NCBI GenBank assembly: GCA_029820295.1 | Contig: JALGVA010000009.1 | Span: forward strand, 1 to 58,191 | Source: Candidatus Zipacnadia bacterium | GTDB taxonomy: Bacteria > Armatimonadota > Zipacnadia > Zipacnadales > UBA5352 | Length of the DNA: 58,191 bases | Direction: 5' to 3' | Part shown: piece after piece, positions 2,378-45,488 of the stretch | How the letters are laid out: each line of letters begins with the position of its first letter | How positions within the stretch are numbered: the stretch's first letter is position 1 | Notes under the pieces: model-generated | The model's input: the letters and a program-made list of their open reading frames with translations, nothing else | What the model was told of the DNA's origin: nothing | Database searches by the model: none | Made by a program: the position numbers and the translations under genes

Positions 2378-3412
2378 TCAGAACTCGTCCTCGGTGAAGT
2401 AGTAGCCGCGGATCTGGGCCATGGGCGCATCGTCCTTGATGTAGCTCACGGCGAAGATGCGGCCGTCGGCGAGCTGCACCCAGCCGGTGTACGACGAGTC
2501 CGACTGCGCATTGCGGTCGTGGTCGAGCGGCAGCACCACGCCCGTCTGGTCCTCGCGCAGCACCGACAGCGCCGACTCGACGGTCTCGCGGTAGGCAAAC
2601 AGATTCTTCGCGAACGGGCCATGACCGGGCTGGTGGCGGTAGAGCACCATCACATGCCCCGAGGCGGTCAGCCCCGGCACCGGGCGGTGGCAGCCGTTCA
2701 TGGGCGTATCAAACGGCCCCCGCCAGTCCTCGCCTTCATCGAAGGAGATGCACTTCGGGCCCGGCACGCCGGTGCGCGAGTTGTCGCGCATGTAGCACAC
2801 CACCTCGCCGCCGGGAAGCTGCACCATGCCGCCCTCGCACGCCCAGTAGTGGTGCGTGGAGCAGACCGTGACCGGCCCGCGCCAGCTCGCGGCCCCGTCG
2901 TCGGAGATGAAGACCATCTGGCGCGACAGGTTGCTCGTCTCGGGCGCGCGCACGTGCGTGCCCAGCAGCAGCCGCCCGGACGCCAGCTCCACGATGCGGT
3001 CGGGAACGATGCCGCACACCGGCGTCTCGACCGGCTCGCCGAAGCTCACGCCGTCGTCGGTGCTCGTCCACAGCCAGACCTTCGAGTCATACTGCGAGCC
3101 CCCCTCGCCGGGGGGAACCGGATAGCCGTCGCACAGGGCGATGATGCGCCCGTCGGCAAGCTGGCTGATGCGCGGGCAGTTCCACTTGAAGAGCACGCCG
3201 TCGGTCTTCTCGGAGCGCGTCAGGTACTGCTTCTCCGACCACGTGCGCCCGCCATCGTCGCTCACGCGCCAGACGAGGTGCGAGAACTCGGCGGCTGAGT
3301 GGCTCTCGCTCTCGCGGTAGACGAGGATCAGGCGGCCGGTGACGGTCAGGCACACGTCGGGGAAGCACTCGTAGATGGCGTCGTCGCGGCTGATGGTCAA
3401 CCTCTCGATCAT
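2378..3412 (-). CDS. BNR/sialidase-like beta-propeller protein (GH33-like fold)
   Basis: Repeated S-x-D-x-G-x-T-W-like motifs (SDDGGRTWS, STDDGVSF, SDDGAASW). I placed the start at MIERLTISRDD (ATG 3412); the Cys/Arg-rich N-terminal extension of ORF 2378..3634 looks like non-coding read-through. Confidence 0.55.
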   Translation of the reverse strand: MIERLTISRDDAIYECFPDVCLTVTGRLILVYRESESHSAAEFSHLVWRVSDDGGRTWSEKQYLTRSEKTDGVLFKWNCPRISQLADGRIIALCDGYPVPPGEGGSQYDSKVWLWTSTDDGVSFGEPVETPVCGIVPDRIVELASGRLLLGTHVRAPETSNLSRQMVFISDDGAASWRGPVTVCSTHHYWACEGGMVQLPGGEVVCYMRDNSRTGVPGPKCISFDEGEDWRGPFDTPMNGCHRPVPGLTASGHVMVLYRHQPGHGPFAKNLFAYRETVESALSVLREDQTGVVLPLDHDRNAQSDSSYTGWVQLADGRIFAVSYIKDDAPMAQIRGYYFTEDEF

Positions 3413-6433: not shown

Positions 6434-7498
6434 TCACTGCTGGCTCAGGATGTCGGTGTCCCGGGCGGCGGGTGGACGTTCGCCGAACCGGCGCGTCTGG
6501 ACATCTTCAGGGCCAGCGACGCCGCCGGCACGAGCGCGCCCGTGCCCGTGCGCACCATCGTCTGACAGCGGAGATGTGGCGACATCATAGTAGTCACCCT
6601 CCGGGTGGTACCGGATCAAAATGACCTCGACTCCCTTGGGGACGCCACCGTCCATGGTGCGGCCCATGACCTGGTGCAGCGTGCCGCCCTCGTCCTTGAC
6701 GTGCACCAGCCCGCGCGCGCCCTCGTGGATGCCGTAGACGCAGGTGCCCACGTGCCCAACCAGGTCCTCCTCGGTCACCGCGTAGGTCTCGCGCGTGGGC
6801 ATGATGCGGCTCAGACCGCGCGCCACCGTACCGGTAAGCATCAGCGACGTCAGCGTGGCCAGCGCCAAGGACGGCCAGAAGTACACCGCCGGGCCCCACG
6901 AGAACGGCAGCACATGCTCGAACAGCCCGTTGGCGATCAGCCCCGAGGCGCCGAAGAGCACCATCAGGCAGGTCATCAGAATCGACACCGGCACCTTGCC
7001 GAAGCCCAGCACCGACAGCGCTCGGATCAGCAGCGACGGCTGCTGCGCGACCACCTCGTGCGCCTCGTGCTCGACGCCATGGCCGGGCCCGTGCTCACCT
7101 GCCACGTCGTGCTCGGTCGCCACGTCATGGTCGATGTCGTGGTCCATGTCCACGTCATGGTCCACGTCCAGGTCATGGTCTACGTCGAGATCGTGATCCA
7201 CGTCCAGGTCATGGTCCATGTCGATGTCGTGATCGGCGCCGATGTCCAGGTCATGATCCATGTCCAGATCATGCGCCAGGTCCACGTCGTGCGTGAGATC
7301 GACGTCGTGCGCGAGATCGACGTCGTGGTCCATGTCCACGTCGTGGGCCAGATCGAGGTCATGGGAGAGATCGACGTCGTGGTCCACGTCGGTGTCGTGC
7401 ACCTCGCTGCCGAGGCCCACGGCGCTGAGCACCAGGTAGACGCCGGAGAGGGCGACCGGCGCGACGAAGATCAGGTTGTACCACTCCAGCAGGTTCAT
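6434..7498 (-). CDS. NfeD-like (YqiJ-type) membrane protein with a long His-Asp repeat region
   Basis: N-terminal TM, then about 100 aa of (H-D-[VLI]-D-[LMV]-x) repeats, then TM segments and a C-terminal NfeD-like OB-fold region (VGHVGTCVYGIHEGARGLVHV...). An AAGGAGG RBS precedes the ATG at 7498. It lies immediately upstream of the flotillin gene, the typical nfeD-flotillin pairing. Confidence 0.7.
   Translation of the reverse strand: MNLLEWYNLIFVAPVALSGVYLVLSAVGLGSEVHDTDVDHDVDLSHDLDLAHDVDMDHDVDLAHDVDLTHDVDLAHDLDMDHDLDIGADHDIDMDHDLDVDHDLDVDHDLDVDHDVDMDHDIDHDVATEHDVAGEHGPGHGVEHEAHEVVAQQPSLLIRALSVLGFGKVPVSILMTCLMVLFGASGLIANGLFEHVLPFSWGPAVYFWPSLALATLTSLMLTGTVARGLSRIMPTRETYAVTEEDLVGHVGTCVYGIHEGARGLVHVKDEGGTLHQVMGRTMDGGVPKGVEVILIRYHPEGDYYDVATSPLSDDGAHGHGRARAGGVAGPEDVQTRRFGERPPAARDTDILSQQ
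7093..7402. repeat. 12-nt tandem coding repeat (GTCCACGTCATG-like units, about 25 copies) encoding the HDVD repeats of the NfeD-like protein
   Basis: Periodicity is visible directly in the sequence: gtccacgtcatggtccacgtccaggtcatggtctacgtcgagatcgtgatc... Confidence 0.8.
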
Positions 7499-7546
7499 CG
7501 CCCCGACCTCCTTGTGGCCGCAGAGCGGCGATTCCGGGGCAGTGCG

Positions 7547-8137
7547 TCAGTCCTGCGACAGGTGCGCCTCGCTATCGGACTCGTCCAGCAGCGCCCGCGC
7601 GCGCGCGAGCAGATCCCGCTCGGCAGGCCCCACTGGCGCCGCCGGCACCTCATCGGCGGGCGCGCCGGCGTCGAGTTGCGCCAGCACATCGAGTCTGTGC
7701 GCCTCGGCGCGCGCCTCGTCCTCCAGCCGGGCCAGCTCCTCGTCATGGCGCGCATGGCCGGCGCGCCCGATGGCCGCGCGCAGGTCGTCGCGCCGCCGGC
7801 TGATCTCGGCGCTGTGACGCACCGCGCCGAGCCGCTCCAGCCGCTCCTCCTCGGCCTCTTCGCGCTGCCGGTAGCGCTCGAGCAGTTCGTCGGCGCGCGC
7901 CCGCTCCTCCTCGAGGCGCGGCACCAGCGCGCTCAGCCGCGTCATCTCCGGCTCGGGCGCGGCCATCAGCTCGCGCAGCTCCAGCTCGGTGCGCCGCGCC
8001 TGGGCGACCGCCAGCAGCGCGAGTGTGCGCAGCTCCTCCAGCTCGGCGCGGACCTGCTCGGCCTCGCGCTCGCGCTCGTCCGTGTCGGCACGAAAAAAGT
8101 CAGCTACAATCGATCGCAGCCAACTGATGATCCGCAT
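7547..8137 (-). CDS. PspA/IM30-like coiled-coil protein (tentative)
   Basis: 196 aa, almost entirely charged coiled coil. The N-terminal amphipathic helix MRIISWLRSIVADFFRA resembles the PspA/Vipp1 N-terminus (MGIFSRFADII...). An AAGAGGG RBS is upstream. Confidence 0.4.
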   Translation of the reverse strand: MRIISWLRSIVADFFRADTDEREREAEQVRAELEELRTLALLAVAQARRTELELRELMAAPEPEMTRLSALVPRLEEERARADELLERYRQREEAEEERLERLGAVRHSAEISRRRDDLRAAIGRAGHARHDEELARLEDEARAEAHRLDVLAQLDAGAPADEVPAAPVGPAERDLLARARALLDESDSEAHLSQD

Positions 8138-36603: not shown

Positions 36604-38025
36604 ATGACCAACGAGCAGACAGCCATTCTGCAGGACCTGATGTTCCATACGGTTCCCGGCGACCTGAGCGACAGGCTGGACGACTTCCGGGCCGAGGTGA
36701 AGAAGGACTACGCCGCCGCCAGCGAGGCGGGCAAGGCCGAGATCGCGGAGACGATCGCCGAGAGCGCCATCGACCTGAAGTCGCTGCTGCCGGCATGGAA
36801 CCTTCAGAACGCCGAGCGCCACGGGGCCTCCGTGGTGACCGACGCGCAGCTCGATGAGCAGTTCCAGGCCAACCTGGCGCTGCTGGACGAGCTGGGCGCC
36901 GGGGCCGAGATGCAGCGCGCACAGGATGAGGCCGCCGCGCTGGCCACCAGCAACCTGGTGAAGCTCACGCGCATGACCCTCGCGGGCGAGCTGAACACCT
37001 ACTGGGGCAACGACTACGCCTCCGGCCTGCGCAAGGCCATGCAGCGCGGCGCCATCCTGGTCACCACCAACCCGGTGCTGGTGGACATCGCGCGCAAGGA
37101 GGACCCCGAGTACTGGACACCGGTGCGCGACGCCCTGCGGGCCAAGCTGGGCGCGCAGGCCACCCCGGTGACGCTGGCCTATGCCATGACCATCCAGGTC
37201 GTCGTGCACAACGCCAGGCTGCTGCGTCCCATCTGGGAGATCACCGAGGGCCGGCTGGGCTACGTGAGTCTGCAGCTCAACCCCAAGGAGGCCAGCAACG
37301 CCGACACGATGGTCGAAGAGGCGAGCTGGGTCTATGCGCAGCTCGAGGACGAGCTGGGTGGGGTGCCCAACACGGTCTTCAAGATTCCCGCGACCGAGGC
37401 GGGCATCCCCGCCGGCGAGCGCATGACCGCCAGGGGCATGGGCGTCAACGTCACCGTCAACTACTCCCTGCCCCAGCAGATCGCCTTCGCGGGCGCCATC
37501 GAGGCCAACAGCACCGCTCCGGTGAGCTTCCGCACCCAGATGGACGGGCGCCTCGACGATCCCGTGGGCGAGGAGCTGGAGGAGGCCGGGGTCTCCGACT
37601 GGGAAGAGGTCAAGAAGTGGGCGACCACCGCCATCCGCCAACGCGACGTCGGCATCCTGTGCGAGCCGCCGGCGCGGGGCGGGCTGGGCTTCAAGAAGAG
37701 CTTCCCGCTGGGCGCCTCGGGGCGCGGGCCGTGGAACATCGAGCGGGGCACCAACAACGGCGACCTGCCGCTGTTCATCACCATCTTCCCGGACAAGGTC
37801 GACGACTATGAGTCCGAGCCGCGAGAGATCGACCCCGACGGCATCTGGACCGAGCTGCCCGACGGCTACCTCGACAAGCTGATGAAGTCGAAGATCTTCC
37901 GCCAGGCCTACGAGCCTGATGGGATGAAGCCGTCGGAGTTCATCGACTTCGTCCCGTCTGCGCGCACGCTCAAGCAGTTCGGCGAGGCCTACGACGAGTT
38001 CCTCGAGTGGGTCTGCGGCAGCTAG
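36604..38025 (+). CDS. transaldolase-family protein, unusually long (473 aa)
   Basis: GAILVTTNPVLV is the transaldolase hallmark (TTNP). RBS AGGAG 8 nt before ATG 36604. The N-terminal region of about 130 aa has no obvious assignment. Confidence 0.55.
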   Translation: MTNEQTAILQDLMFHTVPGDLSDRLDDFRAEVKKDYAAASEAGKAEIAETIAESAIDLKSLLPAWNLQNAERHGASVVTDAQLDEQFQANLALLDELGAGAEMQRAQDEAAALATSNLVKLTRMTLAGELNTYWGNDYASGLRKAMQRGAILVTTNPVLVDIARKEDPEYWTPVRDALRAKLGAQATPVTLAYAMTIQVVVHNARLLRPIWEITEGRLGYVSLQLNPKEASNADTMVEEASWVYAQLEDELGGVPNTVFKIPATEAGIPAGERMTARGMGVNVTVNYSLPQQIAFAGAIEANSTAPVSFRTQMDGRLDDPVGEELEEAGVSDWEEVKKWATTAIRQRDVGILCEPPARGGLGFKKSFPLGASGRGPWNIERGTNNGDLPLFITIFPDKVDDYESEPREIDPDGIWTELPDGYLDKLMKSKIFRQAYEPDGMKPSEFIDFVPSARTLKQFGEAYDEFLEWVCGS

Positions 38026-38049
38026 CCTGACCGGACGAACGAAGCTCTC

Positions 38050-38077
38050 GTGCGGCCCCGCTCCGGCGGGGCCGCAC
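38050..38077 (+). terminator. GC hairpin (12-bp perfect stem) downstream of the transaldolase-like gene
   Basis: GTGCGGCCCCGC tccg GCGGGGCCGCAC. Confidence 0.5.
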
Positions 38078-38089
38078 GCGTCCGGGGGA

Positions 38090-38168
38090 CGAACCCGCCC
38101 GTCGGCCGCGGCGTCATGGAAACGGTGGGGCGGCAGGTGGCCACCGTTGGAGCCGGATGGCCTTGACG
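38090..38168. repeat. left copy of an imperfect direct repeat of about 80 bp; the right copy at 39047-39122 carries the uvrA promoter
   Basis: Shared collinear blocks with similar spacing: CGAACCCG, CGGCC, GGCGTCATGGA, CCTTGACG. The two copies bracket the low-GC NYN gene. Confidence 0.5.
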
Positions 38169-38193
38169 CTAGCCTGTGGATCCCGGGTAGTCC

Positions 38194-38223
38194 TTGACTC
38201 AGGCGCTCAACGAAGTCTATAAT
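38194..38223 (+). promoter_or_regulatory. near-consensus sigma70 promoter for the NYN gene
   Basis: TTGACT - 18 nt - TATAAT, conspicuous in a roughly 70% GC background. It lies about 95 nt upstream of the ATG. Confidence 0.5.
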
Positions 38224-38246
38224 AGACCCCGACACACATGAACCCG

Positions 38247-38293
38247 CCCACGTCTTCACGTGGGCTGGAGGCCACTTCTCTCGAAGTGGCCTC
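38247..38293 (+). promoter_or_regulatory. two stable stem-loops in the 5' UTR of the NYN gene
   Basis: CCCACGT cttc ACGTGGG at 38247-38264 and GAGGCCACTTC tctc GAAGTGGCCTC at 38268-38293. These account for the spurious N-terminal extension of ORF 38238. Confidence 0.35.
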
Positions 38294-38318
38294 TGCCGTT
38301 TGTGGGGGGCGCTGCCCA

Positions 38319-38999
38319 ATGCGCTGCTGGGTCTATGTCGACGGGTTCAACCTGTACCATGGGGCCGCGAAGCCGGCGGGCTGCAAGTGGTTGGACCTCC
38401 TTCAACTGAGTCAGCGGATACGAAGGAACGATACCATAGACCGCATCAAGTACTTCACAGCCCTTGTGGAGAACAGGCCTGACGACCCCGATCAGCAGAG
38501 AAGGCAGCGGCTCTACTGGCGTGCACTTGACACGATCCCCTGCCTGCAGCGCATTGAGGGCCAGTTCACGAGCCACCCACGGACGATGCCACTGCACGAG
38601 TCCGTTGAGACCTTGCGGGAGCTGGATAGGCGGGGCTGCAGCGTCACTGGCGTCAGGCCGGTCATGATGAAGGTCCTGCGGTGCGAGGAGAAGGGCACTG
38701 ACGTCAATCTCGCAGTCCACCTCGTGAATGATGCACACCAGTCAGACCCTGGTAGGACATTCGACTTGGCAGTGGTTCTGTCTGCGGACTCGGATCTCTA
38801 CGAGGCCATTCGCATCGTCACACAGGAGATAGGCAAGCCGGTCTTCGTATACACCCCGAACAGGAAAGTGCAGACGGCCAAGCTCAGGAGGGCCGCGACC
38901 AACGTCTTCAGCCTCACGAAGTCGAAACTCCGCGCATCTGCCTTCCCCAGCACCCTCACTGACGCCCGAGGCAGCTTCTCGAAGCCATCGGGCTGGTAG
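38319..38999 (+). CDS. NYN-domain (LabA-like) putative ribonuclease
   Basis: VYVDGFNLYHGA...EKGTDVNLAVHLVNDA...VVLSADSDL matches the conserved acidic NYN motifs. Local GC is about 50-55%, against about 70% in the flanks. Confidence 0.7.
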   Translation: MRCWVYVDGFNLYHGAAKPAGCKWLDLLQLSQRIRRNDTIDRIKYFTALVENRPDDPDQQRRQRLYWRALDTIPCLQRIEGQFTSHPRTMPLHESVETLRELDRRGCSVTGVRPVMMKVLRCEEKGTDVNLAVHLVNDAHQSDPGRTFDLAVVLSADSDLYEAIRIVTQEIGKPVFVYTPNRKVQTAKLRRAATNVFSLTKSKLRASAFPSTLTDARGSFSKPSGW

Positions 39000-39046
39000 C
39001 CACTTGCTCGAAGATCGCTCGCACGCAATCGCACGCGTCTGCGGCG

Positions 39047-39122
39047 CGAACCCGAGCGGCCACCGGGGCGTCATGGAGCGAGGCGCGCGCCGTTGCCCGC
39101 GCCATCCATGAACGCCTTGACG
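39047..39122. repeat. right copy of the imperfect direct repeat; it overlaps the uvrA -35 element
   Basis: See the left copy at 38090-38168. Confidence 0.5.
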
Positions 39123-39145
39123 TCGAACATATGTTCCGATAGAAT
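39117..39145 (+). promoter_or_regulatory. uvrA promoter with a LexA (Cheo-type) SOS box in the spacer
   Basis: TTGACG - 17 nt - TAGAAT. The spacer is TCGAACATATGTTCCGA, matching the Gram-positive LexA consensus GAAC-N4-GTTC (perfect 12-bp palindrome GAACATATGTTC, 39125-39136). Confidence 0.55.
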
Positions 39146-39224
39146 CCCGGCAACGCACGGACGGCGCGCGGGCTCCGCGACCTGCGCTGCCGGCCCGTGA
39201 TACGACCATCGGAGTGACCCCTGC

Positions 39225-45484
<6,260 letters not shown>

Positions 45485-45488
<4 letters not shown>

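Follow-up and report, generated by a model that had tools for sequence, protein, structure and literature searches.

The window analysed here is the whole 58,191-nucleotide stretch of contig JALGVA010000009.1 from a Candidatus Zipacnadia bacterium, and the related loci and genomes compared with it (W) are referred to by L numbers where they need to be told apart. In the window, a short cassette comprising a promoter, a structured RNA and a gene encoding a NYN-domain nuclease lies between a transaldolase-family gene (tal) and a gene encoding a double-length UvrA (Table 1). The tal gene, which has orthologues in 37 Armatimonadota genomes, forms the upstream flank of the insertion site, and its terminator hairpin is kept at the same position in all relatives in which the site is empty. 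The downstream flank is uvrA. Its promoter carries a perfect Cheo-type LexA box, the only such box in the window, and the box and both promoter hexamers are conserved in 14 related genomes. A previous note on this DNA, made from the letters alone, had described two direct repeats around the NYN gene and had assigned the right one to the -35 region of a LexA-controlled uvrA promoter, an assignment that agrees with the TTGACG-17-TAGAAT hexamers and the CGAACATATGTTCC box identified here. No integrase, transposase or other mobility gene accompanying the cassette was found among the window ORFs, as had been observed before. The cargo consists of the NYN gene and the RNA only, with no methyltransferase or restriction endonuclease. 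The cassette has no terminal inverted repeats, and TRF found no tandem repeats in 37900-39400. The lack of a transposase ORF and of terminal inverted repeats, together with a duplication of about 96 bp rather than a short one, sets the cassette apart from insertion sequences and transposons.

Table 1. Features of the tal-uvrA region, in coordinates of the window.
Feature	Position	Strand	Evidence or remark
Transaldolase-family gene (tal, 473 aa)	36604..38025	+	Pfam TAL_FSA E 1.5e-19; gene call in L001
tal terminator hairpin GCGGCCCCGC-TCCG-GCGGGGCCGC	38052..38075	+	Read from sequence
Left repeat (96 bp of duplicated target), terminating in CCTTGACG, an orphaned uvrA -35	38073..38168	.	
Inserted cassette, 861 bp: promoter, structured RNA and NYN gene	38169..39029	+	Boundaries by alignment with L011
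Sigma-70-type promoter TTGACT-N18-TATAAT of the RNA/NYN transcript	38194..38223	+	11/12 consensus positions
NYN-associated structured RNA	38235..38310	+	CM R1 match 52.5 bits, E 2e-14
NYN-domain nuclease gene, 226 aa, PADLOC HEC-09 family	38319..38999	+	Pfam NYN; PADLOC HEC-09; PHROG 7929
Right repeat (93 bp of duplicated target), terminating in CCTTGACG, the functional uvrA -35	39030..39122	.	
uvrA promoter TTGACG-N17-TAGAAT	39117..39145	+	LexA (Cheo) box CGAACATATGTTCC at 39124-39137
Double-length UvrA, 2087 aa	39225..45488	+	NCBIfam PRK00349 UvrA, two full matches; Pfam UvrA_inter x2, UvrA_DNA-bind x2

The NYN gene was confirmed at its previously given position by the ORF and by a match to Pfam NYN (PF01936; 41.5 bits against a cut-off of 24.2), and public assemblies carry the same gene call. 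An HMM search against defence-system profiles returned a PADLOC HEC-09 match across the full length of the protein (E 6e-39), and the protein also matched PHROG 7929 (E 2e-38). A profile search over PDB sequences found no relative. When its AF2 model (pLDDT 93.8) was submitted to Foldseek, the LabA-like VPA0982 (PDB 2qip, E 3e-8) and the NYN domain of MARF1 (5yaa, 6fdl) were retrieved. The window protein resembles these NYN RNases in its fold and acidic active-site residues, but shares only 9-15% sequence identity with them and is prokaryotic and mobile. It additionally contains a beta-hairpin and helix insertion, and its C-terminal extension ends in a conserved KPxxW. Residues D8, D128, D157 and D159 are invariant or nearly so among 37 homologues, and dN/dS is 0.10-0.13. 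As judged from these comparisons, the protein is under purifying selection and its catalytic NYN signature is intact. The gene is lower in GC than its surroundings, as had been claimed, although the dip is shallower than the 50-55% proposed: we measured 60.4% (GC3 0.79), against 67-72% in the neighbouring genes (GC3 0.94-0.95) and 70.2% in the window. In all three lineages that carry the cassette, the GC3 of the NYN gene is 0.75-0.79 versus about 0.95 in the flanking genes. A scan of the whole window for Cheo-type boxes found none in the NYN gene's own promoter, and the left repeat copy keeps only the uvrA -35, not the LexA box. As no LexA box serves the NYN gene, there is no evidence for SOS coupling.

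The promoter of the RNA/NYN transcript deserves the description "near-perfect" that it had been given, and it is conserved in L004, L005, L008 and L009. The RNA that follows consists of a C-rich 5' tail, two hairpins (P1, 38246-38265; P2, 38267-38294), a U-containing tail and a G-rich Shine-Dalgarno sequence. The leader folds with a minimum free energy of -47 kcal/mol (z = -4.8), a stability reached by none of 200 shuffled sequences, which bears out the two strong stem-loops described before. Searches of Rfam 15 gave no relevant match to the leader RNA, with thresholds of E <= 10 for the window region and E <= 1 for 18 homologous loci. Downstream of P2, the window lineage has GUUUGUG as its tail, with no canonical U tract, and a terminator scan detected nothing; attenuation in this lineage may be weak. 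The leader was also considered as a peptide-coding region (an ORF extension from 38238), a reading that was rejected because its start codons are not conserved, L004 has an interrupted frame and the hairpins show covariation.

The imperfect direct repeats bracketing the cassette are real, but begin 17 bp further left than had been reported, where the tal terminator hairpin has its 3' edge. Their core (38073-38120 versus 39030-39077) is identical at 38 of 48 positions (79%) and the full segments are about 70-74% identical. The local alignment score of 46 compares with 19.7 +/- 2.7 for shuffled sequences and was not reached in any of 500 shuffles. Without a NYN gene, tal and uvrA are adjacent in 15 related Armatimonadota genomes (L011 and 14 more distant ones), and the cassette is absent from L011-L026. 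In L011, the closest empty-site genome (92% amino-acid identity in tal and uvrA), the repeated segment is present once (L011:7463-7565 region). Because the site is empty in 15 relatives and the segment is single in the closest of them, the locus arose by an 861-bp insertion with a target duplication of about 96 bp in the tal-uvrA spacer. The earlier proposal of an insertion that duplicated sequence upstream of the uvrA promoter is therefore upheld, but the insertion is not recent. The order tal-NYN-uvrA is found in three diverged lineages. The same junction sequences are present in W, L004 and L005, and are shared by lineages whose flanking genes have diverged by about 10% at the nucleotide level. 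Between lineages, the right repeat copies are 87-90% identical (W versus L005) and the left copies 65%. The trees of tal and uvrA, built to decide between gain and loss in L011, disagree.

The RNA is not confined to this locus. It adjoins nearly every NYN homologue of more than about 34% identity, as a single copy per NYN locus and with none elsewhere in the 1.2 Mb searched; the one exception is L152, with two tandem copies. A CM search of ColE1-type plasmids carrying NYN relatives of 28-30% identity revealed no convincing RNA, so the link is limited to subfamily members with more than about 34% identity. Among 98 copies, the RNA lies upstream of the NYN gene on the same strand in 76, is divergent in 13 and convergent in nine, and 72 of the 98 are preceded by a promoter of their own, compared with 15 of 294 random sites (5%). 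In the alignment of the 98 copies, 94.2% of cells were paired, versus 72.2% after shuffling and 34-52% after sliding, and all 17 base pairs covary. Compensatory changes were present in 16 of 17 RNAalifold pairs, and an alignment not fitted to the structure still gave 90.8% paired cells versus 73.8%. The NYN gene had been called solitary, which it is not: what had been taken for UTR hairpins is a conserved, structured RNA partner, tightly linked to the NYN gene and found in three orientations across the family. A GC-rich P2 followed by at least five U in nine nucleotides is present in about 55% of the same-strand copies. G-rich Shine-Dalgarno sequences are common in the family but not universal, and pairing of the RNA with them was for this reason rejected as a general mechanism; for the window lineage alone, it is retained as a potential cis effect. 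In the searchable literature, we found nothing specific that pairs a non-coding RNA or an antitoxin with a NYN protein.

The duplication of host sequence also recurs at other loci. Eight of 60 other chromosomal copies of the module lie between duplicated stretches (40-130 bp) of host sequence specific to the locus, such as the last 91 bp of recO or the last 41 bp of dnaK, compared with one of 252 control positions (Fisher p = 1e-5), which corresponds to a roughly 30-fold enrichment around the module. The repeat-flanked inserts measure 804-1195 bp, and no shared termini, conserved ends or terminal inverted repeats were found among the nine of them. No flanking duplication was detectable at 52 of the 60 chromosomal copies or at any of 33 viral and prophage loci. 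A 3.46-kb plasmid of E. coli and Serratia carries the module, RNA included, and complete E. coli genomes yielded no chromosomal copies, only four copies of this one plasmid. In the E. coli plasmid pKMi006_5 (NZ_CP091696.1), a carrier from a cultivable host, the RNA occupies 3054-3122 and the NYN gene 2395-3048. In the Mycobacterium prophage prophiGD43A-1 (M. abscessus), where the module includes gene 6, it is located with its RNA between the integrase and the immunity repressor, and IMG/VR contigs gave 109 matches. The foreign origin suspected before is plausible in view of the lower GC3 in three lineages and of homologues whose surroundings are unrelated and which also reside on plasmids and within prophages. 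That the RNA-nuclease pair recurs across plasmids, prophages and many bacteria suggests that the module is selfish and of a toxin-antitoxin-like or defence type.

The protein family has been encountered before as HEC-09, Hma-embedded candidate 09, which was defined by its embedding in Hma defence systems (Payne et al., bioRxiv 10.1101/2024.01.29.577857). The HEC-09 representative, like the window protein, is a single NYN-domain protein of about 200 aa with the MARF1 NYN domain among its structural relatives and the same conserved aspartates, and it gave no protection against any phage assayed (bioRxiv 10.1101/2024.01.29.577857). Unlike HEC-09, the window copy sits between tal and uvrA and is not embedded in an Hma or other defence system, and other NYN copies are also found amid housekeeping genes. 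A further difference is the RNA partner, of which the available part of the preprint makes no mention for HEC-09 (bioRxiv 10.1101/2024.01.29.577857).

Taken together, we favour, with moderate confidence, a reading of the cassette as a horizontally acquired RNA-nuclease pair that works like a toxin-antitoxin or abortive-infection module with an RNA antitoxin. The sigma-70 promoter would drive a structured RNA of about 70 nt and, directly behind it, the gene of the NYN-fold nuclease. In the ancestry of a small clade of Armatimonadota (Zipacnadia/WS1-like), the module would have arrived in the spacer that separates the LexA-controlled uvrA promoter from the tal terminator, probably by insertion with long target duplication, so that about 96 bp present once in empty sites came to be present twice. 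The right repeat copy would still serve uvrA, and the left, as an orphan, would decay faster. RNA and nuclease would form a functional pair, with the RNA holding the nuclease in check; this model predicts RNase activity, toxicity, an antagonistic RNA and a role in defence or addiction. In cis at the window, P2 and the U-containing tail of the leader may limit read-through, and the C-rich 5' end of the RNA could mask the G-rich Shine-Dalgarno sequence; at other loci, the RNA may act as a separately transcribed small RNA. An RNase tied to a hairpin RNA in the same transcript has a parallel in Regnase-1, which cleaves a stem-loop of its own mRNA. The type III-like logic of such a pair would explain its selfish, patchy spread. 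The module resembles type III toxin-antitoxin systems (ToxIN, CptIN, TenpIN) in combining a promoter, a structured RNA, a terminator-like hairpin and a nuclease gene in a short unit, in its carriage on plasmids and prophages, and, at L152, in the tandem arrangement of two RNA copies. In contrast to those systems, the NYN-associated RNA is single-copy rather than a tandem repeat array, the protein has a NYN/PIN-like fold rather than that of ToxN/AbiQ/CptN/TenpN, and 22 of the 98 RNAs are on the opposite strand. More tentatively, and as a possibility short of probable, the family may represent an undescribed class of RNA-protein toxin-antitoxin or abortive-infection systems, with a non-repeat RNA antitoxin in three orientations, distributed across phyla, plasmids and prophages as a unit of about 0.8-1.2 kb that spreads by long target duplication, possibly with the aid of the nuclease.

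The RNA could instead be only a cis-acting leader that serves as a transcription attenuator or translational switch for a LabA-like RNase that is non-toxic and of a housekeeping type, with the cassette being accessory cargo that has no addiction or defence role. The 76 same-strand RNAs located directly upstream of the NYN gene, a few nucleotides before the start codon as in the window, are consistent with such a leader, as are the attenuator-like P2 and U-rich tail in about half of the copies, the many copies that stand alone amid housekeeping genes outside defence islands, and the negative phage assay of HEC-09 (bioRxiv 10.1101/2024.01.29.577857). However, the 22 RNAs on the opposite strand, which cannot be part of the NYN mRNA there, keep their sequence, structure and own promoter, and the patchy distribution, the carriage on plasmids and prophages and the empty sites in 15 relatives speak against a housekeeping role; we consider a pure leader rather unlikely.

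With regard to the mode of entry, insertion with long target duplication was reportedly described for restriction-modification gene complexes by Nobusato et al. in 2000. It was also documented for such complexes by Furuta, Abe and Kobayashi (2010, PMC2853133), and DNA breakage by restriction-modification systems has been proposed by Kobayashi's group as its basis (PMC2853133). The earlier note knew of no mechanism producing the present architecture; an architecture of this type had in fact been described already. [quoted passage not shown] By the measures used there, the empty site aligns on both sides of the window insert, which is shorter than 20 kb (PMC2853133). The window differs in its cargo, an RNA and a NYN nuclease rather than restriction and modification genes, and the repeats around NYN modules are older (70-91% identical).

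The same repeats might, alternatively, be att-like sites of an integrase-less islet that was placed by a recombinase acting in trans and brought its own copy of the target. That repeats often span the 3' ends of genes (recO, dnaK) is reminiscent of phage att sites, their imperfection (76-91% identity) is expected if one copy arrived with the element, and in L009 the module lies beside a tRNA gene and the C-terminal remnant of an integrase. The repeat sequences are, however, unrelated between loci and 40 to 130 bp long, the inserts have no conserved ends, and the window insert has no recombinase within it or next to it. Moreover, the divergence between the window repeats (about 23-30%) is similar to that between L011 and either copy, which fits duplication at insertion and subsequent decay, and we regard att-like sites as improbable. 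We are equally doubtful that insertion is promoted by the NYN nuclease itself, perhaps in concert with its RNA, through an action on DNA, e.g., staggered breaks tens of bases apart, which would make the cassette a new kind of autonomous mobile element instead of a toxin-antitoxin module. PIN-like and NYN folds do include DNA nucleases. The roughly 30-fold enrichment of long flanking duplications, inserts that hold nothing else and the DNA breakage proposed for restriction-modification insertions (PMC2853133) would agree with such an activity, but the nearest structural neighbours (MARF1 NYN, 2qip) are RNases or proteins of unknown function, most copies have no duplication, and every duplication seen is diverged, so that no recent mobility is observed. 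That the repeat is a chance similarity, of the kind that GC-rich intergenic DNA yields, or an unrelated duplication in a duplication-prone spacer (in L017 the same spacer holds three tandem copies of a unit of about 62 bp) between whose copies the cassette landed is very improbable, given a repeat score about 10 standard deviations above shuffles, the presence of the segment twice in none of the 15 empty-site genomes and the same pattern at unrelated loci far above the control rate.

With these results, an uncharacterised, widespread nuclease family (HEC-09, PHROG 7929) gains a conserved RNA partner that is absent from Rfam 15 and that we did not find in the searchable literature. The partner may explain the negative defence screen of the HEC-09 protein and provides a testable hypothesis, namely that the RNA is an antitoxin or a regulator. 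The mode of insertion with long target duplication, on record until now for restriction-modification genes, is extended to a tiny RNA-nuclease unit (804-1195 bp), which offers a tractable system for studying this unexplained route of gene mobility. At the window itself, the cassette is located directly upstream of the uvrA promoter with no terminator detected, and read-through from its strong, constitutive-looking promoter could alter the SOS control of uvrA.

The NYN gene, which the earlier note had called solitary, was found to adjoin a conserved structured RNA across its homologues, and between lineages the leader was better conserved than the NYN coding sequence. The promoter of its own and the two leader stem-loops attributed to the gene were both recovered: scanning of 37950-39300 returned no promoter sites beyond the two listed in the table, and hairpins P1 (38246-38265) and P2 (38267-38294) gave a fold of −47 kcal/mol (z = −4.8). 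The same promoter and two-hairpin unit was present 5' of the 75%- and 64%-identity homologues, in unrelated contexts, as well as before 38-45%-identity NYN homologues from many metagenomes. RNAalifold analysis of a MAFFT alignment of 35 RNA copies yielded 17 pairs, with compensatory changes in 16; among 98 copies all 17 pairs covaried, and 94.2% of cells were paired in comparison to 72.2% for shuffled and 34-52% for slid partners. A structure-independent alignment gave consistent values (90.8% paired versus 73.8%). The covariance model produced exactly one strong match (23-80 bits) beside NYN in nearly every locus, and no strong matches away from NYN in the approximately 1.2 Mb searched. The RNA was located upstream on the same strand in 76 copies (including the window), upstream on the opposite strand in 13, and immediately downstream in convergent orientation in 9, and a sigma-70-type promoter ended 3-12 nt 5' of it in 72 of the 98 copies versus 5% of random sites. 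The RNA is thus a separate gene in tight linkage with the nuclease gene. P2 with a U-rich tail was terminator-like in about half of the copies. No match to the RNA was obtained among Rfam 15 families, and full-text literature searches yielded no account of an RNA associated with NYN. Two head-to-tail RNA copies, resembling type III antitoxin arrays, were present upstream of NYN on an IMG/VR contig (L152, 3249-3385), the first without and the second with a U tail. A homologue-bearing sequence (L053) contained a near-threshold match to Rfam Acido-Lenti-1 (33.7 bits, gathering score 37) at 2278-2313 on the minus strand, approximately 1 kb from the NYN module.

Features of the tal-uvrA region in the window
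Feature	Position	Strand	Description
Left repeat, full segment	38073-38168		ends in CCTTGACG
NYN/RNA promoter	38194-38223		TTGACT-N18-TATAAT
NYN-associated RNA	38235-38310		covariance model, 52.5 bits
NYN gene	38319-38999	+	226-aa product, Pfam NYN domain
Right repeat, full segment	39030-39122		ends in CCTTGACG
uvrA promoter	39117-39145		TTGACG-N17-TAGAAT
LexA box	39124-39137		perfect Cheo-type, enclosed by uvrA promoter; sole one within the window
uvrA	39225-45488		2087 aa, two complete UvrA modules in tandem fusion

The NYN gene was called identically in public assemblies of the same organism. Its lowered GC content was genuine, although less pronounced than the 50-55% claimed previously: 60.4% (GC3 0.79), in comparison to 70.2% for the window and 67-72% (GC3 0.94-0.95) for the two flanking genes. 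The protein matched the PADLOC candidate HEC-09 (E 6e-39) and PHROG 7929, a family without assigned function. The confident AlphaFold model (pLDDT 93.8) had a LabA-like protein (2qip) and the MARF1 NYN domain as its top structural matches, and comparison with homologues indicated that the acidic residues expected for an active NYN nuclease were kept. According to passages of the HEC-09 preprint (bioRxiv 10.1101/2024.01.29.577857), HEC-09 belongs to the NYN proteins, has aspartates like those of MARF1 and did not protect against the phages assayed; an RNA partner goes unmentioned in those passages. The dN/dS of 0.10-0.13 indicated purifying selection on the gene, and the RNA structure is, like the NYN protein, under selection. 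Despite common cassette junctions, the NYN dS between the window and the related sequences L004 and L005 was 0.87-1.53, three to five times the 0.24-0.32 of the tal and uvrA flanks. This was tentatively attributed to extreme GC3 constraint on the host genes and amelioration of NYN; possible explanations are that codon bias constrains the host genes, that NYN has ameliorated, or that alleles were exchanged.

The imperfect direct repeats reported around the gene were borne out by alignment, the 48-nt core (38073-38120 versus 39030-39077; 79% identity) scoring approximately 10 sd above shuffles. The tal-NYN-uvrA order was also present in two more lineages, L003/L004 and L005-L007, with NYN amino-acid identities to the window of 87% and 82%, respectively, and flanking genes 86-94% identical. 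The cassette was absent from 15 genomes: in the equally close L011 (92% amino-acid identity for tal and uvrA) the two genes were adjacent with a 262-bp spacer, and 14 further, more distant genomes also lacked NYN. The empty spacer consisted of the tal terminator, a variable stretch with a conserved GAAC...CGTCA, the TTGAC −35, the LexA box and the −10. Since the repeated segment was single in L011 and lay on both sides of the cassette in the window and L005, the insert corresponds to 38169-39029 (861 bp) with a duplication of approximately 96 bp, spanning the terminator's 3' edge to the uvrA −35. The suggested insertion with target duplication was thereby confirmed, and the earlier observation was mostly right. 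To it are added here the RNA that accompanies the gene, evidence that the insertion is old, the finding that long target duplications recur around this module, and a precedent among restriction-modification genes. The junction sequences were common to the window, L004 and L005, so the insertion was one old event. The right copies of the window and L005 were 87-90% identical, the left copies only 65%, consistent with a functional right copy and an orphan left copy; in L004 the right copy has disappeared. Because the trees of tal and uvrA were discordant, L011 may either have lost the cassette or never have had it.

Upstream of the uvrA −35, roughly TGAACA...N...CGTCAAnA was conserved in distant Zipacnadia-like genomes (L012-L024), unlike the remaining spacer; in the window this piece (38090-38120 and 39047-39077) forms the core of the duplicated segment and may be a regulatory site. 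The spacer of the related L017 contained, at about 7480-7670, a ~62-bp unit, CCGCCCCCCCGCGCGCAGGGCGGTGCCGCAAAACCAGCGCAAGGACGAGCGGCAGGAAGTT, repeated three times in tandem, which marks the tal-uvrA spacer as duplication-prone. The interval from the left repeat to the module promoter was ~190 bp longer in the L005 lineage than in the window (L005 5330-5420), the additional sequence including a perfect 17-bp hairpin, GGCTACTGCGTCCGTGC-TCAA-GCACGGACGCAGTAGCC. The UvrA equivalog gave two full matches in the uvrA product, and the long reading frame also appeared in the gene call of the related L001 and in partial calls of L003-L006. The whole-window scan identified no LexA box for NYN itself. No terminator was detected 3' of NYN, so transcripts may extend to the uvrA promoter region.

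Long target duplications recurred at other loci. When the 300-bp flanks on the two sides of the module were aligned at 64 loci, flanking direct repeats at z >= 10 were found at nine, namely the window and 8 of 60 metagenome loci, versus 1 of 252 control positions on the same contigs (Fisher p = 1e-5). The repeats (40-130 bp, 76-91% identity) differed at each locus and derived from local host sequence, e.g., the final 91 bp of recO or the final 41 bp of dnaK, and enclosed 804-1195 bp containing the module alone. No conserved ends were found among the repeat-flanked inserts, and no flanking repeats around prophage-borne copies. These insertions fit the criteria set for 'insertion with long target duplication' in restriction-modification systems, namely repeats >30 bp, no mobility genes and a single-copy empty site (PMC2853133).

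The RNA and the nuclease gene constitute a mobile unit. RNA-bearing relatives were present on a 3.46-kb E. coli/Serratia plasmid, in the Mycobacterium prophage prophiGD43A-1 (flanked there by integrase and immunity repressor), on many IMG/VR contigs, and as lone islets amid housekeeping genes. Distant NYN relatives (28-30% identity) were cargo of many 4-7-kb enterobacterial plasmids, with no clear RNA beside them. The module of a 64%-identity relative (L009, 5225-5835) adjoined a tRNA gene and the residual C-terminal part of a tyrosine recombinase (...HSSLEMSRRYAAV...), a setting that reads as a decayed integrative-island context.

As to function, we hypothesise, by analogy with RNA-antitoxin systems, that the RNA restrains the nuclease. 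In the window it could act in cis, with P2 controlling read-through into NYN; its C-rich 5' end, which pairs over the GGGGGG Shine-Dalgarno of NYN in the minimum-energy fold, could possibly mask that site. If the RNA, or transcription, were lost, the nuclease would be released, resulting in addiction or abortive infection. Type III toxin-antitoxin systems are defined by tandem RNA repeats and the ToxN fold; the module lacks the former and its protein the latter, and it is thus described as working like type III rather than as a member. A handy experimental system is the small E. coli/Serratia plasmid named above (L207; NZ_CP091696.1, 3461 bp), whose three annotated genes encode an HTH protein, a VbhA-family antitoxin and NYN, with the RNA upstream of NYN.
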